In this document: positions 1 to 14,786 of the stretch, one piece after another
Layout of the letters: every line of letters begins with the position of its first letter
How positions within the stretch are numbered: the first letter of the stretch is position 1
Virus record (IMG/VR): IMGVR_UViG_3300031787_000074
Direction: 5' to 3' (one strand)
Length of the DNA stretch: 20,000 nt
DNA from: an uncultured virus (IMG/VR IMGVR_UViG_3300031787_000074)
Taxonomy: Duplodnaviria > Heunggongvirae > Uroviricota > Caudoviricetes
Translations under genes and position numbers: made by a program
The notes under the pieces: model-generated
The model's database searches: none
What the model saw: only the letters and a program-made list of their open reading frames with translations
Told to the model about the DNA's origin: nothing

Positions 1-1608
1 TAGTGTGTTTATAACTTTAGGAGTTACCCTGGTTCCTATCGTGTAGTGAAGGACAGGCCTTTCCAGGTACTTACCTTTTGCCGATTTTGTTGAAAGTTTC
101 TGGTGTCCTGGCCTTGGCTGAAAAGTTTTCTCAAATAGATCGTAAGGAATAATGTCGTCAGGCATGAACTCTTCCAACTCGTCATTTAGCCTGACGTGGT
201 TGATAAGCCCTCTAGATAGCATTTCAATATTTCTTCTATGCGCGCCCAGCCCAGCTTCTTTCATTGCGTCTCTAAAACTTAGAACAAACTGCCTTCTTCC
301 TTCGCCTATTCCCTTGAACTTTACAAATTCAGCAGGGTTTGGAAGGCCGTCACTAAGCACATCTCCAGCTTCTACCTCATCTCCTATTTTGAACTTCATC
401 CCGGCTTCTGGATTTATGTAGTGAGGAACTTGTTTGATAAATATGAACTGCCCGCCGCTAGGAGCTTCGCGAACAGATTCTATTTTTCCATCTACTTGAG
501 CATGAGTTGCCCAGTAAGGAGACTGCTTGGGACTTTGAATCAACTGATTTAGCTGCTTGAAGCCTGATATGGACTTACCGCCAGCAACTCCGCCGCTGTG
601 TTTTGAGCTCAGGGTTCCTTGTGAGATTGGTTCGCTGAGTGCTTGCACCGCTGCAATGCCCACAAAGTCCCCAACAGCAGGTAAACCGCCACGCTCACGA
701 ACTCCAACATCTCTTGCATACAAGCCTCCGTCAGGAGCTCCTGTGGCTACAGGACTTCTGACTACCATCTTGGTTATTCCACGGCTGAGAAGGTCTTTCA
801 TGACCTTTGGAGTTATCAGCGTGTTTTTCTTATAGCCGCCTACTGGAACAGACAGAAGTGATCCTTCGTTGTCAGAATCGTCAACATCAACAGGCATTCC
901 TCTGCTGTCCGTATGCCCAGGATCTTCAGCGTCTCTGGCTGTGACTATGAGCCTGTGCCCTAACTGGTTTAGCTGTTTGGAAAAGAACCCAGAGTGTTGA
1001 ACAGAGAACTTGGTATCAACAACTCCCTTTCTGGCTCCGAAGCTTCCAGCAAAATACTCTGCTGGAGTTAGGCCTTTGGAGAAAGAGTTCAAAACTGGAA
1101 TAGGAATAGGCCTGTCTCTGTGGTCTGTGTACAGTAAGTCTCCGCCTCTCAAAGACTTAAGGTTTGAAGGCTTGCCTCTTGAACCAGACAAAACCTGCAG
1201 AGCCAAAGGGCTGTGCTCAGCTTTGGACTCGTTAAGAATGGCGTCTTCTAGAGGCTTCTGATAACTAAGAACAGTTTTGACAATCTCGTCGTTCTTTTCT
1301 TTCTCTGGAAGGTTTCTTGCCTGTATGGCTTGTATTCTTTTCTTTATTTCTAAAGCAGCTTCCTTGCCTGATACTGACGTCCTTAGAGAATCAAGTCCGA
1401 AAGAGAATCCTCCGGTCTTGTAAGCTACATCTCTACCAACGTCAAATAACTTCTTAAGCACATCCCTGTAGCTGTCTGGATCCTTCTCAGCTATCTGCTG
1501 CATCACTTTTTGAACAGTCTTACCGTCAAGAATACGATTATAGTCTCGATAGCTCTGAGGAAGAGCTTCGTTAACTAGCAGCTGACCTACAGTAGTTCTG
1601 ATAGACAT
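1..1608 (-). CDS. rpoC: RNA polymerase beta'-like subunit, C-terminal half (3'-partial, 536 codons visible; absent from the ORF track)
   Basis: Manual translation: ATG at 1608 (TGATG overlap with the upstream stop), no stop down to position 1. Starts MSIRTTVGQLLVNEALP (cf. TTVGR..FNE.LP). Contains SGSRG (cf. SGARG), F-loop/bridge helix PVLNSFSKGLTPAEYFAGSFGARKGVVDTKFSVQHSGFFSKQL (cf. [37 protein letters not shown]) and trigger loop VGIAAVQALSEPISQGTLSSKHSGG (cf. [25 protein letters not shown]). Confidence 0.93.
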   Translation of the reverse strand, partial: MSIRTTVGQLLVNEALPQSYRDYNRILDGKTVQKVMQQIAEKDPDSYRDVLKKLFDVGRDVAYKTGGFSFGLDSLRTSVSGKEAALEIKKRIQAIQARNLPEKEKNDEIVKTVLSYQKPLEDAILNESKAEHSPLALQVLSGSRGKPSNLKSLRGGDLLYTDHRDRPIPIPVLNSFSKGLTPAEYFAGSFGARKGVVDTKFSVQHSGFFSKQLNQLGHRLIVTARDAEDPGHTDSRGMPVDVDDSDNEGSLLSVPVGGYKKNTLITPKVMKDLLSRGITKMVVRSPVATGAPDGGLYARDVGVRERGGLPAVGDFVGIAAVQALSEPISQGTLSSKHSGGVAGGKSISGFKQLNQLIQSPKQSPYWATHAQVDGKIESVREAPSGGQFIFIKQVPHYINPEAGMKFKIGDEVEAGDVLSDGLPNPAEFVKFKGIGEGRRQFVLSFRDAMKEAGLGAHRRNIEMLSRGLINHVRLNDELEEFMPDDIIPYDLFEKTFQPRPGHQKLSTKSAKGKYLERPVLHYTIGTRVTPKVINTL

Positions 1609-1832
1609 CAGATATTGATCTCTTGGACATCGACGTCTGATTTAATGCCAAGTTTAGAGAGAATAGAATCAAACAAACCATTATCGCCTTTCTTGGCCTT
1701 GTACAAAGTGATTGTCCCAGGAGCTAGCTCAAGAACAACGATAATAGGCTGGCCAAAGCTATCGCGAATGACCAGCCTAGTAGCTTCTGCTTCTCCTGAA
1801 GATTGAAAACCGTTGTGATATTCCAGCTTCAA
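1608..1832 (-). CDS. hypothetical protein, 74 aa
   Basis: TTG start preceded by AAGGGG SD-like sequence; stop overlaps the ATG of the beta'-C gene (translational coupling); fills the gap in the operon. Confidence 0.7.
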   Translation of the reverse strand: MKLEYHNGFQSSGEAEATRLVIRDSFGQPIIVVLELAPGTITLYKAKKGDNGLFDSILSKLGIKSDVDVQEINI

Positions 1833-1842
1833 AGCTTCCCCT

Positions 1843-2574
1843 TTATCGTTTGAATCCCATTGCGTTGATCAAGCAGCGAACAGCTTCGGTTTTGTCTTTC
1901 AAGCTTGCTTCCTTCTTTCCGCCGATTGGATCAATTGGCTTGATAGGAGGAATGCCGCCAACGCTGGCATCGCTTCCTTGTTCTTTTGAAGGAACAACCG
2001 GCTCTTGAGCGTCTTCGCCTTCTGGTGCGGGCTTATCGAGAATGTCGTAAGGAAGATTTAGGCCTAGGCTTTCGTACAGATTGATTAGCAACTTTTGTTG
2101 CCTTTCCATGTACTCAAGCATCTGCGCGGGATCTACCTTGCCGCCGCCTTTTGCCTTTGGCTTTGCTGCCCCGTCAGGAGAAGCTCCGCCGAGAGCTGCC
2201 TGCACGGCATCAGTAACCATTTTCTTTATGTCATCAGGAGAAGGGGCTGGAGGAGCGCCGCCCATAGCCGCTGGATCCATAGGCGGAGCACCGCCCATCA
2301 TAGCTGGGTCCATAGGAGGAGCTCCGCCGCCACCCATGGCAGCCATCATTGCTGGATCCATAGGAGGAGCACCGCCCATCATGGAAGGATCCATTGGTGG
2401 AGCGCCTGGAGGAGCAGCTCCCATCATGGCTGGGTCCATAGGAGGAGCTCCGCCGGCAGCGGCTTGGTCCATGGGAGGAGCGCCAGGAGGAGCGCCACCG
2501 CCAGGAGGAACAAAAGCGTTCTTCAGAGCCATAGCCCTTTTGACTTCTTGTAGCAAAATTGGATTGATAGGCAT
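1843..2574 (-). CDS. Pro/Gly/Met-rich repeat protein, about 243 aa, possible virion internal protein
   Basis: Track ORF 1843-2646 re-started at ATG 2574 (MPINPILL), which has GGAG upstream and avoids overlapping the previous gene's stop at 2594. Contains six GAPPMD repeats after a leader ending VKRAMALKNA. Confidence 0.8.
   Translation of the reverse strand: MPINPILLQEVKRAMALKNAFVPPGGGAPPGAPPMDQAAAGGAPPMDPAMMGAAPPGAPPMDPSMMGGAPPMDPAMMAAMGGGGAPPMDPAMMGGAPPMDPAAMGGAPPAPSPDDIKKMVTDAVQAALGGASPDGAAKPKAKGGGKVDPAQMLEYMERQQKLLINLYESLGLNLPYDILDKPAPEGEDAQEPVVPSKEQGSDASVGGIPPIKPIDPIGGKKEASLKDKTEAVRCLINAMGFKR
2248..2500 (-). repeat. coding repeat, six imperfect copies of GGAPPMDPAMM
   Basis: Translation GAPPMDQAAAGGAPPMDPAMMGAAPPGAPPMDPSMMGGAPPMDPAMMAAMGGGGAPPMDPAMMGGAPPMDPAAMGGAPP; codons vary between copies; boundaries approximate. 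Confidence 0.9.
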
Positions 2575-2593
2575 TGATAGCTCCGTATTTAAA

Positions 2594-3559
2594 TTATCTA
2601 GCTCCCGCGCCGATCGGCCCAGAATGACCTTTTTCAAACTTATCAAGAAAATGACTCATAGCCCAGTTGTATTCGTCGCTAGACAAAGGCCGTCCGTACA
2701 TTTGATTGAATACTTGCCGAGCTGGAGCCATAGGAACTCTGTTAGCGTAAGTCCTATTCCTTGGATCAGGAGCGCTGACGCCAGCATAGAAGTTAGGAAT
2801 CATAAAATCGTTATCTTTGTCCTGAAACTTGTCAGGCATCTTAGAGTTTTTAAGCGCAGAAGATTCAAACATCTGCCTATGAGGGTGATAGCTCAAAGAA
2901 GCCCCGTAGCTGCCTTCAGGAAAGGGCTGAGGCTCAAGAGTTGTGCCTCCGGCATTGACCGTAAGCATCTGAGACAAGTTCTTATTTGAGCTAGGAGCTC
3001 TTCTGCTCTGGCTAAGCATAGCCTTGTTGTTTGCTGAAGCCATCTCCTGAGGGCTCATGGTTGGAGGAACCATGTTTGGAACGCCTCTATTGCCTGCAGG
3101 GGCTACAGCCGAAGGAGGACGGCTTGGAGTGGTTACAGGCCTACTGGGCGTTGGAGCAGATATAGCTCCAGGAAGACTAGCTGGACTTACAGCTGGGCTA
3201 GGCGCTGCTGGAGTCATTCCTGGAACTGTGGGAGATACTGACCCAGGAAGGGCAGATGGAGTAACTGGAGGAGTAGGAGCTGGAAGGCTGCTACTCCTCA
3301 GATGGTTTTGCAAAGAAGCCAAGGCGTCTTGGTTCATCCTGGCCATATGTGCCACTTCTGCGTCTTGCCTAGCCCTGTGCGCGGTAGCACTGGATTGGGC
3401 ATTTCTAAGATGGCCAGCTATGGTGTTACCAGACACGTCGGTTAGAGGAGCCGTTGACGGAGTTGCCGGAGTGGCTGGAGTTCCTGAGTCTTGAGCCGCT
3501 TTAATCATGTGTTTGGCTAAAGCGGCCTTAACCATAATCAACTTAAATGTGTCAATCAC
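2594..3559 (-). CDS. Pro/Ala/Ser/Thr-rich hypothetical protein, 321 aa, with helical N-terminal leader
   Basis: GTG start with AAGGAG SD; leader MIDTFKLIMVKAALAKHMIKAA followed by low-complexity sequence; no Cys. Confidence 0.8.
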   Translation of the reverse strand: MIDTFKLIMVKAALAKHMIKAAQDSGTPATPATPSTAPLTDVSGNTIAGHLRNAQSSATAHRARQDAEVAHMARMNQDALASLQNHLRSSSLPAPTPPVTPSALPGSVSPTVPGMTPAAPSPAVSPASLPGAISAPTPSRPVTTPSRPPSAVAPAGNRGVPNMVPPTMSPQEMASANNKAMLSQSRRAPSSNKNLSQMLTVNAGGTTLEPQPFPEGSYGASLSYHPHRQMFESSALKNSKMPDKFQDKDNDFMIPNFYAGVSAPDPRNRTYANRVPMAPARQVFNQMYGRPLSSDEYNWAMSHFLDKFEKGHSGPIGAGAR

Positions 3560-3582
3560 GGCTTCTCCTTGTTCTTATAAAC

Positions 3583-4341
3583 TTATTTGTTTCTAGCTAC
3601 GCCTGGCATGTCTACGTTTAGCTTCGATGGAGACGTGCTAAAAGGAGTTTGAACTGGAGGGAAGACAGAGGATGGTCTAGAGGATGCTATGTTTCTCTGC
3701 CCTTGCGCAGCCCTGCCTTGCTGATAGTTGGCGTATTCATTTGGCATTATACTTCTGCCACCTGCAGCCACGCCCACAGGATTTTGAAAAGCCTCTGGGT
3801 CAATCAAAGCTGTTCCCATTCGGTCTAGCATGGGAGAACCGCTATTCTGCCCCAAAGAAGCTAAGTAGCCTAGAGGACTGGAGCTAGCGTGTTCCACGTG
3901 CTTCTTTATGGTCGCAGCGTTATCTATTGCTGACCTTCCAAAGTTAGCTGCGCCAGAAGCCGCGTTAGCCAGATAGCTTCCAGCATCTCTCATGCTGTTT
4001 CTTACATTCTCAGACCTAGTTAAGTCGTCTAGAGCTCTGGCCGTAGCGTAATCCGGAGCAGCCATGCTGGCTCCGGGTTTTAGACCTGTTACAAGCTGCC
4101 CTCTTCCTAGAGCCTGCTGTCTACGATTGGCTTGAATAGCCAAGTCGGCAGAAGTAGGACCAGAAGTAGGAGGCACTCTAGAAGAAGCTATAGCCTTGTC
4201 TACAGAAGTAGGAGCGGGCTTAGGCGCATTAACGCTAGCAGGGTTAGGTCCTTCTGGAGGAAAAACAGGAGGAGCGGCCTGTTTAATTAACTTAGCCGCT
4301 GCCTCTTTTACCTGCTGAATAGCCTTGTAGTTGAAAGCCAT
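3583..4341 (-). CDS. MAFNYKAI-leader protein 1, 252 aa
   Basis: ATG with GAGGA SD; N-terminus MAFNYKAIQQVKEAAAKLIKQAA shared with two neighbours; remainder Ala/Pro/Ser-rich. Confidence 0.85.
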   Translation of the reverse strand: MAFNYKAIQQVKEAAAKLIKQAAPPVFPPEGPNPASVNAPKPAPTSVDKAIASSRVPPTSGPTSADLAIQANRRQQALGRGQLVTGLKPGASMAAPDYATARALDDLTRSENVRNSMRDAGSYLANAASGAANFGRSAIDNAATIKKHVEHASSSPLGYLASLGQNSGSPMLDRMGTALIDPEAFQNPVGVAAGGRSIMPNEYANYQQGRAAQGQRNIASSRPSSVFPPVQTPFSTSPSKLNVDMPGVARNK

Positions 4342-4829
4342 CTTAGTATCCTCAGGGTTAGAGCTTTAAAAACTACTAAAAAATTACTTAGATAACCTAG
4401 CTTTAGGTAATCCGTACAACTCATCTTCTATATTTTTTGGCATGGGCAGCGCGAAATTGCTAGTTGGAACCGAATAAACTCCTCTTGGCTGGTAGTGCAT
4501 GGCTCTGCGAGCCATGTCCAGGGTAGTAGGCGATGTTAGCATGTTCTCTACTTGAGCTCTATCTTTACCTATGGACACCGCGTCTTCTTTTTTCCCAGAC
4601 TCCAAAGCTTTAATTTGCTTTTCTAAAAGTCTCTTAGCGAAGTCTTTTTGAATATCAATAAAGTTACTCATACCCTGGTCATTTGGATAATTTCTAGCGG
4701 CAAGACCGGCGTCTCCTGGAGCTCCTAGAGTAGATTTAAGTTTTACTGCTTCATTTTTATCTGCAGATAATTTAACTGCAGCTTTTTTAACTTGTTCAAT
4801 AGCCTTGTAGTTGAAAGCCATCTTAGTAT
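4318..4829. repeat. 32-bp exact direct repeat (4318-4349 and 4798-4829) covering the RBS spacer and codons MAFNYKAI
   Basis: aatagccttgtagttgaaagccatcttagtat occurs identically twice, 480 bp apart. Confidence 0.95.
4384..4821 (-). CDS. MAFNYKAI-leader protein 2, 145 aa
   Basis: ATG with AGGA SD; N-terminus MAFNYKAIEQVKKAAVKLSA. Confidence 0.85.
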   Translation of the reverse strand: MAFNYKAIEQVKKAAVKLSADKNEAVKLKSTLGAPGDAGLAARNYPNDQGMSNFIDIQKDFAKRLLEKQIKALESGKKEDAVSIGKDRAQVENMLTSPTTLDMARRAMHYQPRGVYSVPTSNFALPMPKNIEDELYGLPKARLSK

Positions 4830-4876
4830 TCCTAACTTTAAAACTGCGTTGGCTACGGAAGTAAAACGTATCTAGA

Positions 4877-4905
4877 AGTATAAACTGCTTTATAGCTTAC
4901 AGCAA
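4877..4905 (-). promoter_or_regulatory. sigma70-like promoter candidate TTGCTG-N17-TATACT
   Basis: Lies in the 123-bp intergenic gap upstream of ATG 4821; correct 17-bp spacing; AT-rich context makes a chance match possible. Confidence 0.4.
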
Positions 4906-4944
4906 TCAGCCTTTTACTAACAATTTTTACCTTGGCTTTTACCA

Positions 4945-5415
4945 TTAATACCCGTAGTTAACTTTACCTGTGCCAAGACTTGGCAAACCTACGCCTTTTA
5001 GAAAAGCTTGCCTATGCAAATTGTTGAATGGAGTTTTTGACAATTCTGTCGGTAACGTTTGATAAGTAGGGTATGGAACAATTTGACGATAGTTTTCTGA
5101 TCCAGGCATGGAGTATTGATACGGGTTTACGGGTTTATTTAGCGCCTCTGTACTGGCTGCGTGTCGCGTTTCTGGAAGATTTCTAGAGCCTTCCAACATT
5201 TTTTGTTTTCTTTCTGTTTCAGAAAGCCACTTTATGCCAGGCTCAGGCGCTTTTTGATAAGTAGGAAGACCTATAGCGTCTCCTCCGTAACCTGGAGGAA
5301 TAATTTGCGGTTTAGTCGCACTGCTGGCAGTAGGTTTTAAAGTAGCCGCAGATTCAGCAGCCCTTTTTGCCAGAGCTTCTTTAACCATTGAAATAGCTTT
5401 GTAATTAAAAGGCAT
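4945..5415 (-). CDS. MPFNYKAI-leader protein 3, 156 aa
   Basis: N-terminus MPFNYKAISMVKEALAKRAA; GGGTGA SD-like sequence supplied by the 12-bp repeat. Confidence 0.85.
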   Translation of the reverse strand: MPFNYKAISMVKEALAKRAAESAATLKPTASSATKPQIIPPGYGGDAIGLPTYQKAPEPGIKWLSETERKQKMLEGSRNLPETRHAASTEALNKPVNPYQYSMPGSENYRQIVPYPTYQTLPTELSKTPFNNLHRQAFLKGVGLPSLGTGKVNYGY

Positions 5416-5418
5416 GGC

Positions 5419-5464
5419 TTCACCCTAGTTTACACCCTAGTTTTCACCCTAGTTTTCACCCTAG
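5419..5464. repeat. 12-bp tandem repeat, about 3.8 copies (minus strand AACTAGGGTGAA)
   Basis: Plus strand ttcaccctagtt tacaccctagtt ttcaccctagtt ttcaccctag; occupies nearly the whole spacer and includes the TAG stop of the RNAP gene. Confidence 0.95.
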
Positions 5465-8400
5465 CTGTTTAGAATTACCACTTTCTGATCAGGCCCAATT
5501 TCTCCTGACTTATAAGCCCTGATTGCGTCGGCTTTTGTGGCAAAATACCGTTCTGGTTTATTAGACACGAAGGCCGTTGCCTGATAAAGACCGCCTTGAT
5601 ACTCGTTCTTTGGCAGCTGGTGAACTTTAAACGTTTTAGTTGATAGCAAATTCTTGCTAGGCAACATCTTTTCAAGAGCGTCTTTGACAGCTCCATCAGA
5701 CACAGGAACGTGGTAGTTCATGGTGTCGCCATCAAAGTCGGCACCAAATCCCGTAACCACAGCTGGGCATAACTGCATTGTTTCGTTGTCTACAAGTATT
5801 GGCTTGAAGGCCATAACGCCATACCTGTGAAGAACTGGAGCTCTGTTGATAATCACAGGCCTGTCGTTCATCTCTTGCTGCATAGCTGTCAGAGCTAACT
5901 TGTCTTTGTTCTGCACAAGTTCTGCTGCCCTAATCGGAGAAACTCCTTGTCTGGCCAGTCTTCTTACAATAAATGGTTTATATATTTCCCAAGCTTTGTT
6001 GATAGGAATGCCTACTTGATCTAAATCCAGATTGGCGTTTGGAGAGATAACGCCTCTGCCAACAACGTCTACTGTCGTGCTTAGCAACTTGCGCTGCATA
6101 ACAGAGAACTTAGGATTATCGCCAAACACGTATTTGAGAACGCCTTTGACTCCGCGCTCTTGGTTCTTGGGACTTATTGGATCACCAAGTCCCGTGACTG
6201 CTTTGAATGACCTATATAGAGCTAAGCGCTCATCTCCAACTTCGTTGGATATTCTTCTGGTTTCTTTCAAAGCCTGGTTAGCTTCAAAAGCTTCCTTATA
6301 CAGGTAATTAGGATCAGCCACCAAAGGTCTGTCGCCAGATCCCATAACAGCCACAGGGCGGAATATTGGTGGAAGGACTGGAATCTTGTCCATCATCCAA
6401 TCTTTTGGATGCATCTTCAGCCTTTGGGTGTGTTTCAGAATCGCCCAGCGCTTTAGAGCTGCATCTTTCGATGACTTCTTCGAGTTTCTCCATTCTGTTT
6501 CTGCTCTCTTTGTTGCCTCGTTGATGTCAATTCTTTCCAAAGACTTCTTTATAGCCTCTGGACCGGACATTTCATTGAACGTCTCTTTTCCAGAAAGTAT
6601 GGCGTTGAACCTGTTTTGAGTCAGGCCGAGTATTCTGCGAATAGGCTCTTCCATGACAGGATTGGGCAAAGGCTCAGCTAACTTTATGTAGCTCCATCTA
6701 TTTCCTCCATGTCCTCCTGTTGTTGATTCGTCAAACAATCCTCCCTTTATGGGCTTCAAGCCTTCCTTCCAGTCCACAGTTTCAGGAGAAGTTATTTCCC
6801 TTCCTGCAGCTAATTGGTCTATATCCTTGTTGGTCAAGGCCATGATCTGAATTCTTGGCCCAGTTCTTATTGGGTTTATGCCTGCAGACCTGAGTTGTTC
6901 AAAGAACTTATGGTATACGAGAGGAATTCTTGGCTCAGGAGGAGTTCTACCGGACATGAATGCTGCCCAGTAGTCTTGATTTTTTTGTCCTCTAATAGCT
7001 CCGGCATCGGTAAGAACATCCAAAGCTCCATGGGAAAGAAGGGCGTTGTTGTCAGCAAGGCTTACGCGCTTGCTTCCCATTGGACCGCCTTTAGCTGGAG
7101 ATTCCTCAGAGGTGTAAGAACCCAAACCACGACCAGAGCCTTTGCTCTCAGCCATGTGGTGCAACTTCATGAAGAAGCGATTTCCTGTGAATACGTCCCT
7201 TATTTTTGTGCTGTCTATTGGATCCAGTATGTCTTCCCTGTCAGACATGTTGTGCTTGGATAGTTCTTTTTTGGCGAACTCTATCATGTCTTCTATGTCA
7301 GAAAAGTCTTTTACGGCGTATCTCTTACCGTGCTTTTCAGCTATTTTTCCCAGAACCGCTTCTACCATCTGACCAGGATTTGTTCTGGAAATAATGCCCA
7401 AGGGGTTTACCAGAACCTCAAAAGGTCTTCCGTCGCTATCTACAGGCATGTGGTTGTCTGGAACTATCTCAGAAATTACTCCCTTGTCTCCATACCTTCC
7501 AGAAAGCTTGTCGCCAACCTGCATTTGGGAGTAGCTCTTTACTGTTACGACTACGCCTTTCCTGGTTTTCTCTACGTCTGTAACCACTCCTTTGTCGTGA
7601 TGATCCCAAGTTACAGTGCTGTCTGAAAAAGTAGGAGCCTTGCCTCTGGTTATTTGATTGTGCGCCAGCTCTTTCTGCTTAACCTGAAGAATAAGAGGAG
7701 TATCGGCATTTACTATTGAGCCCTTCTTGATTACTCCGTCCTCATCCATGTTGTCCAGGATGGCTTTGTCGTAAGTGCCTGGGAACATGGATATAAAAGT
7801 TTTCTTTCCGTATTTGGCGTTATCCTCAAACTCCACGTCGTTTTGATACATGTGTTCTGAGGAAAGACGCTTGGCAGCTGCCTCAGATATAACTATGGCG
7901 TCTTCAAAGTTCTGACCTTTATAGGGAATGTAGGCAGTACGCATGTTCAGACCCAAAGCCGTAGCGCCTTTGGCGTCTGTAAAGTTAGACCTGGCAATAA
8001 GAGTATTCTTCTTTACCATGTCTCCAGGCATAACTACAGGCGTGTTATGAAGATAAGTCTTTCTGTTGTAAGGAAGGTTGTCATGTATTTCTTTAACATG
8101 CACCTTGCCATCAGATCCCTTTATGTGAATCTCTTCTGGAGTAACCTTAACAACTTGTCCTTCTACGTCGGAATGTACCGCGCCCATGTACTTGCCGTAT
8201 CTTTCCTCATACGACTCGTCATCAGGACCTGGAACACCTGACTGAACAAACGGGGATTCGGCGTTTGCAATAGGCAAAGCCTGTGTAAGCATTCTCGCGC
8301 CCATCATCACGCGCTGGCCTTTGATGGTGGATTTGAGAGGAATCATGTTTACCAGAGGATTGAACGAGTCTTCCATGTGTGGAAGAACGTATTCAACCTG

Positions 8401-9897
8401 GTTCTTTGGAACATATTTGATTTTGCCGCTAACCAAAGCAGCCACTACGTTTGAATTCTTGTTTTCAAGCTCTTTGGGGAAAGCTATTACAGAGTCAGCA
8501 ATATCCTGAGGAGTTTTCCATACAGGTTTATTTCCATTCTTTACGTCAAGAAACTTGGCATAGACCTTTCCATCCTTACCTTTCATGGAAGATTGAGCCA
8601 AACGGCTATCAACACCTACCTTTAGAGATTCAGGAGTGAGTAGAGGATCGACATAACCAAAGTGAGAAGGCTGAACCGACCTGGCTTCGTCTGGAACAGC
8701 GTCCAGAGAAGGAATACCGCCTTCGCCAAGACGACTCATTCTGGTCAGCTGGCCAAGAATCTCAGCGTTGTTCACTTCTTCAGAAGGCTGTCCAAGTCCA
8801 GAACTTGTAATTGCAGCATTCAAATGCTTGCCAAGGAAGTTAGTTCCCAGAGGACTGAGATTATTTTTGAATGTGGCTTTCCACAGTAAAGGCCTCATGA
8901 CCTTGTAGGCTGAGCGCATCTTCTCAGAAAACAGATCCTCAGGACCCATGATCATCTGATAGGCCATGGCATCGCGGTCGTCTGGATCTGCTTCTCTCTT
9001 GTTTATGGCCACGATCTTCTTTGTGGCATCAATAATGGCATCTACTGACAAGTTTTTATACGGTTTGCCTAGTGTTCTTGACGTTACAACACCATCTAAA
9101 TGCATGTTCTCAAAGAAGTTACGAAGCTTTTGATACTTGCTTTCCTTGTCTCCTTCCTGATCAGCCTTCCTAAGAGTTCTTTGGATTAGCTTTTCCAGAA
9201 CCTGCGGGTCGTTTTGCCTGGCGTTTACTTCGTACAGCTCGTTTCCCCAAGAGTCTCTAAGCTGTTTGTCTGTTGCACCCATGGCTTTGAGCAGGGGAAA
9301 CAGAGGCATGGACGCTTGGCCCATGGAAACTTTGAATACGCCGCGAGCTGGATCTAGAGAATATCTGTGAGAAACACCTTTACCAGGAAGTACGTTAACG
9401 TGAGATTCTATTTCACCGTTCTGCTTTTCTCTCGTATATATCCCTGGGCGCAATCTGGCTTGGTTGGCAAGTGTGTATTCAACACCATTAAGTACGAAAG
9501 TGCCGCCATTTGTCATCTTGGGAATACGAGCCATGGTTATGGCTTTTTCATCAACGATGTTTCCCTGCGTGTCCTGAAGCTGCCATATGCCCTGAAGCCT
9601 TCTTTCAAGGCTTTCTTTTCTAAGAATGGCTTTCTTTCGTTCTTTTATGGAAGGAACTGGGCTATCTAGATAGCTAGCGCTGACTAGCTTTAGCTTATAC
9701 CTATTGTTTTCAAATACAGGAATTTCTTTCGTAGCGTTTAAAACACCGTCGTATATGGAGTTACGAGTCTTATCTATGTCAGAAAAAGACCGCATCTCTT
9801 CCTGAGGTTTATTTAAAATAGGCGCGGCCAGATTGCCAAGAACTCCTGCAGGCTTGTTTGGTCCCGCAGGAGTTCCACCGTCTAGGACAGAAGCCAT
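5461..9897 (-). CDS. rpoBC: DNA-directed RNA polymerase, beta subunit fused to the N-terminal catalytic half of beta' (1478 aa)
   Basis: Beta motifs in order: IPKMTNGGTFVLNG, EARSVQPSHFGYVDPLLTPE, RVMMGARMLTQALP, GQNFEDAIVISE, VGDKLSGRYGDKGVIS, LVNPLGIISRTNPGQ, FMKLHHM, QLRSAGIN. Then, with no stop, beta' motifs: ITSPETVD..KPIKGGLF, IPVLPPIFRP, RKLLSTTVDVVGRGVI, INRAPVLHRYG, GADFDGDTM (5725-5745 for GADFDGD). Confidence 0.96.
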   Translation of the reverse strand: MASVLDGGTPAGPNKPAGVLGNLAAPILNKPQEEMRSFSDIDKTRNSIYDGVLNATKEIPVFENNRYKLKLVSASYLDSPVPSIKERKKAILRKESLERRLQGIWQLQDTQGNIVDEKAITMARIPKMTNGGTFVLNGVEYTLANQARLRPGIYTREKQNGEIESHVNVLPGKGVSHRYSLDPARGVFKVSMGQASMPLFPLLKAMGATDKQLRDSWGNELYEVNARQNDPQVLEKLIQRTLRKADQEGDKESKYQKLRNFFENMHLDGVVTSRTLGKPYKNLSVDAIIDATKKIVAINKREADPDDRDAMAYQMIMGPEDLFSEKMRSAYKVMRPLLWKATFKNNLSPLGTNFLGKHLNAAITSSGLGQPSEEVNNAEILGQLTRMSRLGEGGIPSLDAVPDEARSVQPSHFGYVDPLLTPESLKVGVDSRLAQSSMKGKDGKVYAKFLDVKNGNKPVWKTPQDIADSVIAFPKELENKNSNVVAALVSGKIKYVPKNQVEYVLPHMEDSFNPLVNMIPLKSTIKGQRVMMGARMLTQALPIANAESPFVQSGVPGPDDESYEERYGKYMGAVHSDVEGQVVKVTPEEIHIKGSDGKVHVKEIHDNLPYNRKTYLHNTPVVMPGDMVKKNTLIARSNFTDAKGATALGLNMRTAYIPYKGQNFEDAIVISEAAAKRLSSEHMYQNDVEFEDNAKYGKKTFISMFPGTYDKAILDNMDEDGVIKKGSIVNADTPLILQVKQKELAHNQITRGKAPTFSDSTVTWDHHDKGVVTDVEKTRKGVVVTVKSYSQMQVGDKLSGRYGDKGVISEIVPDNHMPVDSDGRPFEVLVNPLGIISRTNPGQMVEAVLGKIAEKHGKRYAVKDFSDIEDMIEFAKKELSKHNMSDREDILDPIDSTKIRDVFTGNRFFMKLHHMAESKGSGRGLGSYTSEESPAKGGPMGSKRVSLADNNALLSHGALDVLTDAGAIRGQKNQDYWAAFMSGRTPPEPRIPLVYHKFFEQLRSAGINPIRTGPRIQIMALTNKDIDQLAAGREITSPETVDWKEGLKPIKGGLFDESTTGGHGGNRWSYIKLAEPLPNPVMEEPIRRILGLTQNRFNAILSGKETFNEMSGPEAIKKSLERIDINEATKRAETEWRNSKKSSKDAALKRWAILKHTQRLKMHPKDWMMDKIPVLPPIFRPVAVMGSGDRPLVADPNYLYKEAFEANQALKETRRISNEVGDERLALYRSFKAVTGLGDPISPKNQERGVKGVLKYVFGDNPKFSVMQRKLLSTTVDVVGRGVISPNANLDLDQVGIPINKAWEIYKPFIVRRLARQGVSPIRAAELVQNKDKLALTAMQQEMNDRPVIINRAPVLHRYGVMAFKPILVDNETMQLCPAVVTGFGADFDGDTMNYHVPVSDGAVKDALEKMLPSKNLLSTKTFKVHQLPKNEYQGGLYQATAFVSNKPERYFATKADAIRAYKSGEIGPDQKVVILNS

Positions 9898-9900
9898 GGC

Positions 9901-10917
9901 TTATTCCTCGTTATCTTCTTCCTGGTCTTCAGACTCTTCTACTTTTTTCTTCTTTTCATGAATTGGAAGAGCCATAAGCTTTGGAGGAGAAGCAGCCTGC
10001 CTTGCAGCAGCTCTTTCTCTGGCTATTTCGCCAAGGAGCTTGGAAGGATCTCTCTTGCTGAAGTATTCGTATCCAAGGGTTGTTCCAAGAACAGGCAAAC
10101 CAGCCAAAGCTGTAAGCCCCAAACCTCCAATTATGTTACCGGCGGATTCTAAAGAAGCTCTTGCCGCATTAGGGTCAATGCCTGCTTGCTCATAAATAGG
10201 GTCTGTAATCATTCTGCTAGTAGGTATAAGATCACCGCTAGCCTCAACTTTATAAGGAGGATATTTGCCAGATATCTTAAGAATGTACGCTAGCTTTTCC
10301 AGGTTGTACCGCAGCTCTTTGGCTACAGCCTTATCCCCAGAACCGGCTTTTTGCATCTTTAGTTTATCTTCGTCATAAGACTCCATTAGAGCCTTGTTGA
10401 ACTCTTCCGCCTCATCAGAAACATCTTCTTGAATCTGCTTGGCTCGTCTTGAGTTGAGAATGGCGTTGGTCAGCTTGTAGCCGCCATACATAGTTCCCAA
10501 GCCGCCAAGAATACTGAGAGGCCAGAAAATTGGCGCTTCTGCAGGGCTTTGAGCTTCGTGGCCGTGAAGCCAGCTAGCTTGTTCATATGGTTTTCTGTAA
10601 GCGCCTAAGGCCTTGGCTATAAGGTTGCTTTGCGTTGGCTTTTCAGAAGATGCCTTTATAGCTTCTTCTACAATCTGCTCTTTTACGTCCTCTTCAGGAT
10701 CTTCCGTATAGTTTGGATGGGGAAGAGGAAGTATTGATGGGGTTCTAGACCTGAACTTGGCTTTATTCTTTTTGAAGACGCCAGGAATTTCCTGAGCCGC
10801 TCTGGCTCCAGCTCCAAGCATGGCCGAACCTAGAAGAACTTGGCTCAGCAGTCCGTAAGTTTTATTTACCGCTCTGTTTGAATCATCAATTTCATCTGCT
10901 TTCTTTTCTTGAGACAT
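9901..10917 (-). CDS. hypothetical protein with three Gly-rich hydrophobic segments, about 338 aa
   Basis: Re-started at ATG 10917 (MSQEKKAD; GAGGAG SD; upstream stop at 10920). Segments LLSQVLLGSAMLGAGA, IFWPLSILGGLGTMYGGY, IIGGLGLTALAGLPVLGTTLGY; acidic tail. Confidence 0.82.
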   Translation of the reverse strand: MSQEKKADEIDDSNRAVNKTYGLLSQVLLGSAMLGAGARAAQEIPGVFKKNKAKFRSRTPSILPLPHPNYTEDPEEDVKEQIVEEAIKASSEKPTQSNLIAKALGAYRKPYEQASWLHGHEAQSPAEAPIFWPLSILGGLGTMYGGYKLTNAILNSRRAKQIQEDVSDEAEEFNKALMESYDEDKLKMQKAGSGDKAVAKELRYNLEKLAYILKISGKYPPYKVEASGDLIPTSRMITDPIYEQAGIDPNAARASLESAGNIIGGLGLTALAGLPVLGTTLGYEYFSKRDPSKLLGEIARERAAARQAASPPKLMALPIHEKKKKVEESEDQEEDNEE

Positions 10918-10919
10918 GG

Positions 10920-11264
10920 TCACAGTCTCCTCTGTACGTTCTTTGGAATGATGCCGACTACTTCGCCCCATTCCAGATGGATTCTTATCTCTTTACCGTC
11001 TTCAGATATGAGCTTAGTCCTATCTATTAGACGGAATAACCCGTTGACTATCTTATCCAGTATCTGTGTATATTCTTCTAAATCTGAAGAATTACCAAGA
11101 TCAAATACCTTCACATTCGCATTAACGCCGTGAGGTATATTGTCGTACTCTTCCTGAGTTAGATTTGGCGTGGCGTTTCCCATTAAGGGAAAGCCTTGCG
11201 AAGTTACAGCTCTTGAATCAGCGCGATACTTAGCCCCAACACCAAACTGATTCAGTATCTTCAT
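10920..11264 (-). CDS. hypothetical protein, 114 aa
   Basis: ATGA overlap with the upstream gene; fits operon packing. Confidence 0.78.
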   Translation of the reverse strand: MKILNQFGVGAKYRADSRAVTSQGFPLMGNATPNLTQEEYDNIPHGVNANVKVFDLGNSSDLEEYTQILDKIVNGLFRLIDRTKLISEDGKEIRIHLEWGEVVGIIPKNVQRRL

Positions 11265-11725
11265 ATACCGCCGCTTTCTTTAAGCCTTCTAAGTTTGTTC
11301 TTCATCCTGATCTTAGCCTTCTGAATAGCTAAGTCGTTTATTACTTCCTCGGCTTTTGCTTCTTGCTCGGCCAAAGGATCTGAGCGCATGTCAGCCAAGG
11401 CTTTACCAGCCAGAATACCAGAACCTGTGGCTGCTATGCCTGTAGCTGCCAGTATCTTTGGAGCGTTATTGAGTATCCAGTCAGAGTATCCAGTAGCAGC
11501 CAAAGCCGCACCTGCGTTCTGAACTGGAGTAGAAGCTCCAAGAGTGTTTAAAGTTATGCCTGTGCCAAGACCTTTAGCTAGCCTTGACCCAAGAGTTTCG
11601 TTGTCAGCTTGTTTCTCAAGCTTATGAATGGCAGTCTTAACTCGCTCGTTCATCTGAGCAAGAGTTAGACCTTCGTCCAGACATCTACTTATAAAAGCTA
11701 ACTTGAAACTGGTCAGAGGATCCAT
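11261..11725 (-). CDS. hypothetical protein with Gly/Ala-rich hydrophobic segments, 154 aa
   Basis: GAGGTG SD overlapping the upstream stop; leader ...VKTAIHKLEKQA followed by LAKGLGTGITL and ILAATGIAATGSGILAG. Confidence 0.82.
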   Translation of the reverse strand: MDPLTSFKLAFISRCLDEGLTLAQMNERVKTAIHKLEKQADNETLGSRLAKGLGTGITLNTLGASTPVQNAGAALAATGYSDWILNNAPKILAATGIAATGSGILAGKALADMRSDPLAEQEAKAEEVINDLAIQKAKIRMKNKLRRLKESGGI

Positions 11726-11728
11726 GAA

Positions 11729-12091
11729 TCACCTCTTTGGAATATTCAGGCCTGACAGTGAGACATAAACTCTCTTTCGTTCTTCAGCTTGTTGTCTGCG
11801 AATGTCAGGGTCCATTGGATTTCCCTGATCTTCAGCAGCCTTTATAACTTCCATAAGATTTTTAGCTGCTTGCAATAGTTCGCGGCGTTCGTCAACGTAG
11901 TGACCACCACGATCTCTCATGTGCTCAGCTTCTCTTGCAAATGAAACTGCTCTATATCTCATAGTCATTGGGGCTTCATATTTGATATCACCTGCTTTCT
12001 CATCAATAATCGCAACCATTCCGTCCTGAGCCCAATACCTCAGGTCTCTGAAAGAAAACACTTTGCTGTTTTTTACAATGTCTTCAGCCAT
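11729..12091 (-). CDS. hypothetical protein, 120 aa
   Basis: ATG with AAAGGG upstream; charged, helical-looking; 3-bp gap to the next gene. Confidence 0.78.
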   Translation of the reverse strand: MAEDIVKNSKVFSFRDLRYWAQDGMVAIIDEKAGDIKYEAPMTMRYRAVSFAREAEHMRDRGGHYVDERRELLQAAKNLMEVIKAAEDQGNPMDPDIRRQQAEERKRVYVSLSGLNIPKR

Positions 12092-12108
12092 GATAGCCCT
12101 TTCTATAC

Positions 12109-13098
12109 TTAATCTAGCTTAAGCACTCTGTCTAAAACCCTGAAGTCGTTTACCGACTTACACGTCTCATCCCTTCTATCAGTATCGTCTGAACTCTGGC
12201 TAGACAACATCAGTGTATCACGCCCTCGAACCACAAGCACTCTCAAACTAAGTATCGTATCTCCGTTCTCAGAGTGAACGTCATAAGCTGTTACAGGTAA
12301 TTTTCTATCATTTAAAAAAATATCATTTGAGCCATTCTTTCCTAAACTTATTACCCATCTGTTTGATTCAGGATTTGACGTGTCAGCTCTTGTTAGTTGA
12401 ACCAGAGAACTTTCAGGCAATGGCTCTTGAGGATAATAGATCTCATCCTCATACATCTCCGAGTATCCATACCATGGGTTGTACATGGTTGTTCCTGGAA
12501 TCTCTCTATCAGGAACATCTACTTGTTCTATTCTTTCTCTTTCTTCCATTACTCCCGACATATCCAATAACTGATTTATCAAAGCATTCCTTTCTCTTAG
12601 AACTTCTCCTCTTTCCAATACTAACCTTGAATACAGTCCTTGGTTTCTTAGAGGAGCAGCTATTCTTGCCATTAGGGCTAATTCTTGGTCTATCTTATTC
12701 TGTAGCAAGTCTAACCATGCTTTTCTGTTTCTGTTGTTTAAATACCTTACTGAAGAGCGTCTATTTGATATCGAGCCTTCTGGTCTTTCCATATAGTCTT
12801 TTATTGCTTCTTGAGATAGTTCTATCATTGCGGCTATATATTGTCTGACTGCTGTGCCTAGAGTTGGATTTATTTCATCTAACTGAGCATATGTTGCAAT
12901 ATAACTTTCTCTAAGAAGCTTTAATTGTTCTTCCATGAATTCTTGAACTGTATATACGCTTTCTTCTAAATCGAATGATCTTGCTGAAATAGAAAAGCCG
13001 AATGGAAGTATGTACGAATGCTGCCTTATATCTTCTGAGGCGTTTTCGTTCACTTCTCTTTCCATTCTTATTGCTTCTTCGTGAGAAGATTCATACAT
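12109..13098 (-). CDS. hypothetical Glu/Arg-rich protein, 329 aa
   Basis: ATG with GGAGG upstream; long ORF in visibly AT-rich DNA; no recognised domain. Confidence 0.8.
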   Translation of the reverse strand: MYESSHEEAIRMEREVNENASEDIRQHSYILPFGFSISARSFDLEESVYTVQEFMEEQLKLLRESYIATYAQLDEINPTLGTAVRQYIAAMIELSQEAIKDYMERPEGSISNRRSSVRYLNNRNRKAWLDLLQNKIDQELALMARIAAPLRNQGLYSRLVLERGEVLRERNALINQLLDMSGVMEERERIEQVDVPDREIPGTTMYNPWYGYSEMYEDEIYYPQEPLPESSLVQLTRADTSNPESNRWVISLGKNGSNDIFLNDRKLPVTAYDVHSENGDTILSLRVLVVRGRDTLMLSSQSSDDTDRRDETCKSVNDFRVLDRVLKLD

Positions 13099-13117
13099 GG
13101 ATCCTTCCTCCTATACC

Positions 13118-14200
13118 TTATTGACCAAACAATCCTGGTATTACTGCCTTTAGTGCTCCAGCGAACATTCCTGTATTCTGTAATGTTCTTTGGGCTGTTG
13201 GTGTCAGACCAGCTAATGCTCCAAGCACCTTTCCGCCTATATATGCCTGGGATAATCCAGCGCCCATTCCAAGTCCTACTCTTGAAATGTCGAATGGAGA
13301 TATGATTCCCATGTTTCCTTTTGATTGGTTTGCTGCTTCTGTTAGTCCGACTGTTGCTGTTCTTAGTGGTATTGAGGCAAAAGGATCCATCATTACTGAT
13401 CTGTTGAATGCGTCGACAGGAATGGTTGGAAGGTTTTCTATGCCTGATTGGGATAGAGATTGCTTTTGCATATAGTCATCTAGCATTTGTTCTGATTCTT
13501 TGTTTGGGTGTATATCTTTTATTCCTTCAAATGCTCTATTGATTGCTTCTGAGATTTTTTCTTGAGGTTTTTCTTCTGGCTGAGAACCCCAGAACACATT
13601 TGGCTTTACCCAGGCATTCCACTTACTCTTATCCTTGTCGTCCCAATTCCTCATTCCTACAACTCCTAGATATGCTGGAATTGCTGCTCCGCCCAAAGCT
13701 CCAATGACTCCAAGAGTCTTGTTGAGCCTGTCTCTTTTTACAAACCTTTCTGGAAATAGTCTTTCTAGCAGACTTCCTGTCAAATATCCCGCGCCGCCTC
13801 CTAAAGCTCCGCTAGTTAACATTGAGAATAAAGGGCTTGTTCCAAACTCTCCGAAGTTTTGATTGAAGGAGTTTGGAGCCAAGTTCATTAGCTTGGGAAT
13901 CGTTGAAAGAGTATCTTTTGCTTTCAATGGCTCTGCTGCTCTCTTTACGAATATCCATCTCTTGTTTTCAGGCAGCTTTGTTTCCCTATGACCTATTTCA
14001 AATCCTTTCTTCTGCATGTTCTCTACTGTTGATAGGCAATCTGTAGTTAGTAATCCTGGATTGTCTGCATCGAACCAGACAACTGAATTGTCTTCAAGGG
14101 CGCTAGAAACCTTTTCGTGAAATGGCTTAAGAGACTTAATTGCTTCCTTGACCATTTCTGGAAGGAGCAAGTATTCCATCTTTAGAAGAGTGTCGGTCAT
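13118..14200 (-). CDS. glycine-zipper-type hypothetical protein, 360 aa
   Basis: Segments GALGGGAGYLTGSLL, LGVIGALGGAAIPAYLG, VGLGMGAGLSQAYIGGKVLGALAG; starts 1 bp after the upstream stop. Confidence 0.85.
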   Translation of the reverse strand: MTDTLLKMEYLLLPEMVKEAIKSLKPFHEKVSSALEDNSVVWFDADNPGLLTTDCLSTVENMQKKGFEIGHRETKLPENKRWIFVKRAAEPLKAKDTLSTIPKLMNLAPNSFNQNFGEFGTSPLFSMLTSGALGGGAGYLTGSLLERLFPERFVKRDRLNKTLGVIGALGGAAIPAYLGVVGMRNWDDKDKSKWNAWVKPNVFWGSQPEEKPQEKISEAINRAFEGIKDIHPNKESEQMLDDYMQKQSLSQSGIENLPTIPVDAFNRSVMMDPFASIPLRTATVGLTEAANQSKGNMGIISPFDISRVGLGMGAGLSQAYIGGKVLGALAGLTPTAQRTLQNTGMFAGALKAVIPGLFGQ

Positions 14201-14201
14201 C

Positions 14202-14786
14202 TTAGTTTCTCGAATAGAAGGCTGAAGGCATGTGTGATTGAAGCATGTGTATTCTGAAGTTTGTGGGTTTGTGCGTTAATCCCACAATACCGTTCTTTGG
14301 TTCGTCGCTTATGTCGAATTCGTCTGGAGCTGCTGATACAAGTGCTCTAAGTATTATATTCTTCCTTATATATTGTTTCTTGTCTGATAGCTCTTTGGCT
14401 GTTATCAGGCTTTTTAGTGTTTCGCTCTTTGCTGCATACTTTAGGGCTGAAGGCTCTTCTTCTAGTCCAGCCAACACGGACAGTTTGTTTGCAAGATAGT
14501 TTGAGCCTAAGGCTCCAAGTATTGCTCCCAAGGCTTTTCCTGGAGTTACAGAACTATCTGTTGATCCTGACAAAGCTCCTCCTACGCCATAACCTCCTAT
14601 TGCTCCTGTTCCTGTTGCCAGTCCTTTCATGCCTCCTCGAATAAGGTCTAGTAGCCTTGTGTATTTGTTCTTGCCTTTTCCGCCTGTTGGTTCAGCTAGG
14701 GCTGATCCGGCTATTGTGGTAAGTCCAAGCAAGCCCGCAGCTGGACTAACTGGAAAAATATTTGCGGGTTTTGACTCTTTGCTCAT
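14202..14786 (-). CDS. glycine-zipper-type hypothetical protein, 194 aa, first gene of the leftward operon
   Basis: Segments AAGLLGLTTIAGSALA, GGMKGLATGTGAIGGYGVGGAL, ALGAILGALGSNYLA. Confidence 0.82.
   Translation of the reverse strand: MSKESKPANIFPVSPAAGLLGLTTIAGSALAEPTGGKGKNKYTRLLDLIRGGMKGLATGTGAIGGYGVGGALSGSTDSSVTPGKALGAILGALGSNYLANKLSVLAGLEEEPSALKYAAKSETLKSLITAKELSDKKQYIRKNIILRALVSAAPDEFDISDEPKNGIVGLTHKPTNFRIHMLQSHMPSAFYSRN

Follow-up and report, generated by a model that had tools for sequence, protein, structure and literature searches.

The 20,000-nucleotide stretch analyzed here (the window) is part of the genome of an uncultured caudoviricete, IMG/VR record IMGVR_UViG_3300031787_000074 (hereafter G001; 189,675 bp, estimated to be 91% complete), and it encodes a multisubunit RNA polymerase (RNAP) from which cysteine (Cys) has been almost entirely lost. 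As judged from its sequence, the enzyme is a two-chain core of the bacterial type, with β and the N-terminal half of β′ fused in one protein and the C-terminal half of β′ encoded separately, and the two chains together contain a single Cys in 2,112 residues. The canonical four-cysteine (Cys4) zinc sites of β′ have both disappeared, the first, the β′ zinc-binding domain (Zn1), by deletion and the second (Zn2) by replacement of all four ligands. We consider it probable that this polymerase is carried in the virion and delivered into the host, and that thiols are strongly selected against in its mature chains. The features on which this reading rests are listed below, with the positions of the window.

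5461..9897 (-): fused polymerase chain of 1478 amino acids (aa) with 1 Cys, identified by translation, Pfam and PDB sequence matches
6874-9897 (-): β portion of the fused chain, residues ~1-1008
Residues ~1033-1478 of the fused chain: N-terminal half of β′
6670..6744 (-): Zn1 remnant GGLFDESTTGGHGGNRWSYIKLAEP, residues 1052-1076
5767..5769 (-): codon of the sole Cys, residue 1377
5725..5745 (-): catalytic loop GADFDGD, residues 1385-1391, aligned with NADFDGD of solved β′ and γ chains
1..1608 (-): chain corresponding to the C-terminal half of β′, first 536 of 634 codons, the gene crossing the left edge of the window; 0 Cys
922..945 (-): VTARDAED, an Ala replacing the first Zn2 ligand (C814 of E. 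coli and Salmonella)
703..762 (-): VRSPVATGAPDGGLYARDVG, in which C888, C895 and C898 are represented by T or G, Y and D

The 1478-aa chain comprises more than β′. The catalytic N-terminal half of β′ is present, and Pfam and PDB matches placed β in front of it in the same protein. Pfam domains were found in the order Rpb2_3 (E 1.5e-4), Rpb2_6 (E 9e-53), and then Rpb1_1 and Rpb1_2 (E 4e-25), and the sequences of solved chains matched the protein as β to residue ~1008 (E values down to 5e-68) and as β′ or γ from about residue 1105. The second chain has a full length of 634 aa (G001 91003-92907) and carries Rpb1_5 (E 2e-18), which covers the bridge helix and trigger loop region. It aligned to residues 664-1185 of β′ from M. 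smegmatis (5tw1_D) and to residues 12-352 of 8syi_Z, and its AlphaFold2 model (mean pLDDT, the predicted local distance difference test score, 75.7) matched bacterial β′ chains in Foldseek (E ~1e-23). The catalytic loop, the β active-site segments, the bridge helix and the trigger-loop regions could all be aligned with those of bacterial RNAPs (Salmonella, E. coli, Thermus and Mycobacterium), whereas the subunit boundaries differ, several segments are shortened and no α or ω was found with Pfam. The break within β′ falls at about the same place as in the split β′ of cyanobacteria (γ/RpoC1 and RpoC2, PDB 8syi), since the fused chain aligns to cyanobacterial γ up to residue 549 of 624 and the second chain begins at RpoC2 residue 12; in cyanobacteria, however, β is a separate chain.

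Both Cys4 sites were examined by alignment with Salmonella β′, in which Cys 70, 72, 85, 88, 814, 888, 895 and 898 have the E. coli numbering. The segment PETVDWKEGLKPIKGGLFDESTTG, located just before the Zn1 remnant, was anchored by phmmer on residues 24-51 of a Thermus-type β′ (1524 aa) and on residues 36-63 of a cyanobacterial γ chain, and the remnant itself has about 12 residues in place of the bacterial CxC...CxxC segment. MAFFT opened a 32-column gap over CxC...CxxC in the fused chain, a gap common to gp206 of Salmonella phage Arash, a cultured relative, and to all six other homologs aligned. The domain holding C70, C72, C85 and C88 in E. coli is thus deleted. At the second site, alignments to 5tw1_D and to Salmonella β′ showed C814, C888, C895 and C898 to be represented by A, G or T, Y and D, so that all four ligands are residues other than Cys. 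Both losses had been proposed in the initial annotation, and the alignment with the E. coli-numbered residues bears them out. The split β′ of cyanobacteria generally keeps both zinc sites.

The former Zn2 site was followed in homologs of the second chain, of which 1,381 were found at E <= 1e-10; the best 120 were analyzed, and 109 of these were shorter than 700 aa. Among the 109, Y297 was kept in 105 and D300 in all, and the conserved motif in the clade of the window is GG-[LV]-Y-A-R-D. Column 227 is variable (A44, D24, S12, H11), and column 289 contains G, S or T. The initial annotation had considered that His or Asp might act as alternative ligands; no conserved four-ligand His/Asp set replacing Zn2 was found among these 109 homologs, in which the only fixed ligand columns were Y297 and D300. 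AlphaFold2 predicts with confidence that the region is folded (residues 211-300, block means of pLDDT 80-95).

The counts of Cys given in the initial annotation were recovered on recounting: 1 in the 1478-aa open reading frame (ORF), 0 in the 536 visible codons of the second chain and 24 (2.1%) in an NrdJ-type ribonucleotide reductase (14929..18312, +), which is interrupted by a LAGLIDADG-bearing intein and serves as an internal comparison. The full 634-aa second chain also lacks Cys. By comparison, Salmonella β and β′ together have 22. With the Cys frequency seen elsewhere in the genome (1.49%), a length of 2,112 aa would be expected to contain 31.5 Cys (Poisson P(<=1) = 7e-13). The scarcity of Cys in both chains is therefore not due to chance, and it extends to their homologs, the comparison for which the initial annotation had called. 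For the fused chain, 888 homologs were found at E <= 1e-10 among 7,999 scored, and the best 120 (52-77% identity) were analyzed. Of the 105 intein-free sequences in this set, 97 have no Cys, seven have one and one has two; these stray residues each occupy a different, unconserved position, and the sole Cys of the fused chain, residue 1377, is found in none of the 105. The second chain is free of Cys in 108 of the 109 intein-free homologs (<700 aa, from the best 120). A HMMER scan of 50%-identity cluster representatives yielded 1,056 matches at E <= 1e-30, of which the best 150 were analyzed; the 92 without an internal insert have 58 Cys in 112,249 aa, long C-terminal extensions being counted.

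Inteins provided an internal control for the level at which Cys is avoided. They were found at five sites in 15 of the best 120 homologs of the fused chain, and these 15 sequences have 128 Cys within the inserts and 2 outside them. The inteins of the polymerase genes carry 4-16 Cys each, and the extein sequence always resumes behind them with Ser or Thr and never with Cys. The presence of Cys in inteins but not in exteins indicates that avoidance acts on the mature spliced protein, rather than on gene composition or cysteine supply.

Among cultured phages, Salmonella phage Arash (OQ632216.1) and Vibrio phages D69, D181 and D148 are the nearest relatives, with 26-31% identity to the chains of the window (Arash fused chain: 29.9% over 98% of the chain). 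These phages have the same layout, with β fused to the N-terminal half of β′ and the C-terminal half separate, and their fused chains are similarly very low in Cys (1 in the 1525 residues of Arash gp206, 2 in the 1527 of D69_0261). The Zn1 domain is deleted from gp206 as it is from the window's chain, in an alignment made without D69. G001 and Arash also share the gene order major capsid protein, gp222-like, gp218-like, SNF2, β′ C-terminal half and fused chain, so the SNF2 and head-gene neighbors match, and comparison with the Arash head-gene region places the polymerase genes among structural or late genes. In Arash particles, according to Table 2 of PMC10585845, gp206 is the most strongly detected protein (128 unique peptides, 3516 spectra), and the β′ C-terminal half gp216 (40 unique peptides, 1210 spectra), the SNF2 helicase gp217 (38 and 1148) and the sigma-like gp10 (24 and 467) are also present. 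The spectra per residue that we computed from that table for gp206, gp216, gp217 and gp10 (2.3, 2.0, 2.4 and 2.0) suggest a roughly equimolar set of the four proteins. In the same data, the Arash proteins with at least 10 unique peptides (n = 36) have 0.40% Cys, versus 1.37% for the rest.

The initial annotation also raised the question of a second, Cys-retaining RNAP. Searches with PF00562, PF00623 and the fused chain as query gave one β and one β′ match each in G001, in G002 (93% complete) and in Arash, which, like G001, has a single polymerase in its genome. No other polymerase, α or ω was detected by Pfam in the 178 G001 ORFs of at least 90 aa (E <= 1e-5 or 1e-3), a negative result from which divergent forms of α and ω could escape. 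A sigma-like protein of 289 aa with 1 Cys was identified in G001 from a Sigma70_r3 match and BLAST similarity to Arash gp10; Pfam searches of G001 for sigma regions 2 and 4 gave no match.

The phage phiKZ offers a contrast between two multisubunit polymerases in one genome. Its virion RNAP (gp178, gp149, gp180 and gp80) is injected with the genome, as described in PMC8287921, from which the gene lists of both enzymes were taken. In the virion subunit gp180, GLFSVSIFG is followed by 11 residues and then by GYIHLGLEL, so that the Zn1 domain is gone at the same point as in the fused chain of the window. The non-virion gp55, unlike these two, keeps CxC...CxxC (C58, C60, C73 and C76). As for the other site, the non-virion gp74 has the pattern C...Cx8CxxC and the virion gp80 keeps a CxxC. 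The assignment of gp180 as the N-terminal part of β′ is a probable one, read from its N-terminal alignment. BLAST and phmmer revealed no meaningful pairwise similarity between the phiKZ subunits and the fused chain, and the regular expression D[FY]DGD did not recover a catalytic loop in the phiKZ chains. Given this lack of similarity and the single phage compared, shared descent and convergence fit the common Zn1 deletion equally well. No α or ω is encoded by phiKZ, and none was detected in G001, but the phiKZ virion enzyme consists of four chains rather than two, and a second, non-virion polymerase is present.

The virion RNAPs of N4-type phages are single-chain, T7-like proteins of ~3,400 aa from short-tailed phages. 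Their fold is unrelated to that of the enzyme studied here, the chains of which gave only Rpb1 and Rpb2 domains in Pfam and no T7-like domain. The resemblance lies in the loss of Cys. N4 gp50 and gp71 of Pseudomonas phage DEV (Schitoviridae) are virion-carried, ejected and, like their counterparts throughout the family, Cys-free, and PMC3715699 and PMC11445570, which agree with the initial annotation on the absence of Cys from the N4 enzyme, tentatively link this absence in N4-like virion RNAPs to passage through the tail or through the disulfide-forming periplasm. In the same sources, the ejection operon of 191 N4-like viruses is described as suppressed in Cys (0.00075% vs 0.865%). Suppression of the kind seen in ejected N4-like proteins is thus found in the polymerase of the window, although it is not universal, as the Cys content of the phiKZ virion RNAP demonstrates (below).

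Taken with these comparisons, the polymerase would form part of the particle and enter the host along with the DNA, probably accompanied by the sigma-like protein and the SNF2 ATPase, and would there start phage transcription. Life as virion cargo would select against thiols in the mature protein, and every non-essential Cys would be purged. The Zn1 domain would have been deleted early, in a common ancestor with Arash, and the Zn2 Cys4 site would have been replaced later, in the clade of the window, by the conserved GG-[LV]-Y-A-R-D, which may act as a packing motif. Packaging in this phage, ejection, the reason for the avoidance of thiols and the role in early transcription are what we infer from the evidence above. 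For the view of the initial annotation that the enzyme is a virion RNAP, the Arash particles, the structural gene region, the presence of a sole polymerase and the loss of Zn1 from phiKZ gp180 all provide support. However, packaging does not require the loss of zinc, given that Arash and D69 keep Zn2, nor does injection require a Cys-free chain, given that the phiKZ virion RNAP has 16 Cys. A stronger version is put forward tentatively, and we regard it as possible rather than probable: the full transcription set (fused chain, β′ C-terminal half, sigma-like protein and SNF2 ATPase) would lie in the head in about equal amounts, would pass both the tail and the envelope in an unfolded or partly unfolded state and would refold in the host without zinc and free of the risk of disulfides, and Zn1 loss would be a general mark setting virion multisubunit polymerases apart from non-virion ones, as with gp180 and gp55 of phiKZ.

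Several observations weigh against this reading, or against parts of it. The phiKZ virion RNAP has 0.61% Cys (16 in 2,614 aa), between which and the 1.16% of the non-virion enzyme (33 in 2,850 aa) lies the background of 0.85% for ORFs across 150 kb of the phiKZ genome; the proposal that every injected multisubunit polymerase lacks Cys was therefore rejected. Arash gp216 and D69_0264 contain exactly four Cys each, and these are the Zn2 ligands that are replaced in the clade of the window. Thus, a tie between zinc loss and packaging as such was ruled out for Zn2, and alignments show that the Arash branch has lost Zn1 and every dispensable Cys and has kept Zn2, the replacement of Zn2 being restricted to the clade of the window. 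As to zinc itself, one former ligand position is occupied by an invariant residue, D300, and the nearby H218 and D226 are invariant too. In addition, DEV gp71 has a predicted zinc motif even though it is free of Cys (PMC11445570), which calls for caution in equating the absence of Cys with the absence of zinc. The term "zinc-free" used in the initial annotation would therefore be best understood as the loss of the two canonical Cys4 sites and no more: this part of the claim stands, and the absence of zinc from the enzyme goes beyond it. Low Cys is no simple mark of virion proteins either, as the G001 homologs of some Arash particle proteins contain this residue (portal, 7 in 637 aa; gp218-like, 10 in 959; gp222-like, 10 in 492). 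With a single polymerase, and one that is encoded in the structural gene region, the question arises of what transcribes the middle and late genes. Finally, the particle data come from Arash alone, the chain of which is just 30% identical to that of the window; the Arash table (PMC10585845) includes 116 proteins, ribonucleotide reductase, primase and ligase among them, and its authors offer the carry-over of abundant proteins as an alternative.

These last points also favor the best of the competing explanations, according to which the polymerase is an ordinary, unpackaged intracellular enzyme, its detection in Arash reflects the carry-over of an abundant late protein, and Cys and zinc were lost on other grounds, for example through resistance to thiol-directed stress or to host factors, or through streamlining. 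The tolerance of Cys by the injected phiKZ polymerase and the normal Cys content of some G001 homologs of Arash particle proteins are likewise consistent with it. We nevertheless find it unlikely. In the Arash particles, the most-detected gp206 yielded 128 unique peptides, whereas the reductase gp27 yielded 11 and the primase 2 (PMC10585845); the replication and nucleotide enzymes of G001 keep 1.4-3% Cys; and the Zn1 deletion matches the virion enzyme of phiKZ and not the non-virion one.

The depletion of Cys extends beyond the polymerase. Cys makes up 1.34% of all residues in the 208 ORFs obtained for G001 by simple ORF calling, and both polymerase genes and their neighbors lie in a run of 19 consecutive ORFs (G001 85477-106085) with 8 Cys in 6,772 aa (0.12%), versus 1.49% elsewhere; none of 10,000 shuffles of ORF order gave so long a Cys-poor run. 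The collagen-repeat fibre-like proteins and a major capsid protein homolog, encoded elsewhere in G001, are also nearly Cys-free. The run of 19 ORFs and the fibre-like proteins would fit a second alternative, in which depletion is a trait of a co-expressed late block, for example through late cysteine economy or shared descent, and is not specific to the polymerase. This explanation is still less likely than that of an unpackaged enzyme: the gp218-like and gp222-like proteins, encoded on the same strand and in the same region, carry 10 Cys each; inteins with 4-16 Cys next to exteins with none count against effects of supply or composition; and methionine (Met) is not depleted, at 2.9% in the block versus 2.2% genome-wide. 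The sparing of Met indicates that the constraint concerns thiols and not oxidation damage in general, and it would be better accounted for by disulfide trapping or thiol chemistry in the course of ejection than by oxidation at large. That the polymerase is packaged but is kept with the capsid or acts from it, without threading through the tail, and avoids thiols for the sake of a long extracellular life is the least probable alternative, since Met, likewise oxidation-prone, is not avoided, the published cases of Cys suppression (PMC11445570) are those of ejected proteins, and it is hard to see what a polymerase would do within a capsid. Delivery of the polymerase from the virion into the host therefore remains the reading that we prefer.

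All the long ORFs in positions 1-14786 of the window are on the minus strand, and the neighbors of the polymerase genes in this region form two groups.

1843..5415 (-): five ORFs between the polymerase genes, 1 Cys in 1,141 aa, Pro/Ala/Ser-rich, three with paralogous N-termini
9901..14786 (-): seven ORFs upstream, 3 Cys in 1,627 aa, three with a Gly/Ala-rich hydrophobic segment

Three consecutive Cys-free ORFs of the first group (3583-4341, 4384-4821 and 4945-5415, -) start with M[AP]FNYKAI..VK.A, looser variants of which begin other ORFs of the Cys-poor block. This common N-terminal peptide may serve as a signal for targeting or assembly. Considered also as a packaging signal, it occurs in its strict form in one ORF of one related locus and in none of two others. 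In the same group, a 267-aa ORF (1843-2646, -) consists mostly of GGAPPMDPAMM-like repeats (15% Pro, 15% Ala, 12% Gly and 8% Met), with DNA repeats detected by Tandem Repeats Finder at 2249-2493; the antisense ORF that overlaps it (2081-2989, +) is probably spurious.

Between the fused polymerase gene and the first of these neighbors, a 12-base unit, A[AG]CTAGGGTG[AT]A, is present in four tandem copies (window 5419-5466, -). The TAG stop of the polymerase gene marks the start of the repeat, 3 bases separate its end from the ATG of the next ORF, and every unit has a TAG in the polymerase frame, which the next ORF also uses. The pattern has 4 matches versus 0.13 expected, and in the 43 loci compared its fourfold form was found solely in copies of this site.

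Five proteins of the Cys-poor block have a Gly/Ala-rich hydrophobic stretch of the glycine-zipper kind (window 9901-10971, 13118-14200 and 14202-14786; G001 85477-86007 and 87513-88445), which suggests, on sequence grounds, that they would suit a role as membrane-inserting ejection proteins. The SNF2-family ATPase of the block (496 aa, 0 Cys, homologous to Arash gp217) lies outside the window, at G001 86016-87506. In one relative, a single chain of 1774 aa combines the C-terminal half of β′ with NUDIX and the SNF2 ATPase, and in other relatives NUDIX or DUF5661 is fused to this half. A fusion of the downstream 836-aa protein to it was also considered and was found in none of the 150 representatives. 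β′ homologs are encoded by many mid-sized phages (110-207 kb) outside the known jumbo groups, such as the Rhizobium RHph_TM phages, Vibrio phages 1.031.O and Va2, Ralstonia RP13 and Escherichia EP_H11. In the genome as a whole, 195 of the 208 called ORFs are on one strand, and a family A DNA polymerase with a uracil-DNA-glycosylase domain is encoded at 171160-174354; the same fusion is reported for Pseudomonas phage PaBG (PMC7412058).

Virion polymerases and the no-Cys rule were already known, and the presence of the Arash chains in particles had been reported (PMC10585845). In the literature searched, we found no paper on a multisubunit polymerase lacking Cys or lacking both zinc sites, and no later work on Arash.

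To our knowledge, the two β′ zinc sites are regarded as structural elements shared by almost all RNA polymerases of the cellular type. The loss of both sites and of nearly all Cys from a large natural clade implies that neither is required for fold or catalysis, and the compact two-chain core of 2,112 aa is open to in vitro study. The rule that ejected proteins contain no cysteine would be extended from the single-chain N4-type enzymes to a multisubunit polymerase. The Arash and D69 intermediates, with the four zinc Cys left, together with the contrast between the virion and non-virion enzymes of phiKZ, make up an ordered series that can be tested, and the availability of Arash and the Vibrio phages in culture makes their packaging, ejection and zinc content directly measurable. 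If the stronger version put forward above is correct, the clade of the window would be the end point of the trend toward Zn1 loss, the first cellular-type RNA polymerase to work without cysteine or structural zinc.

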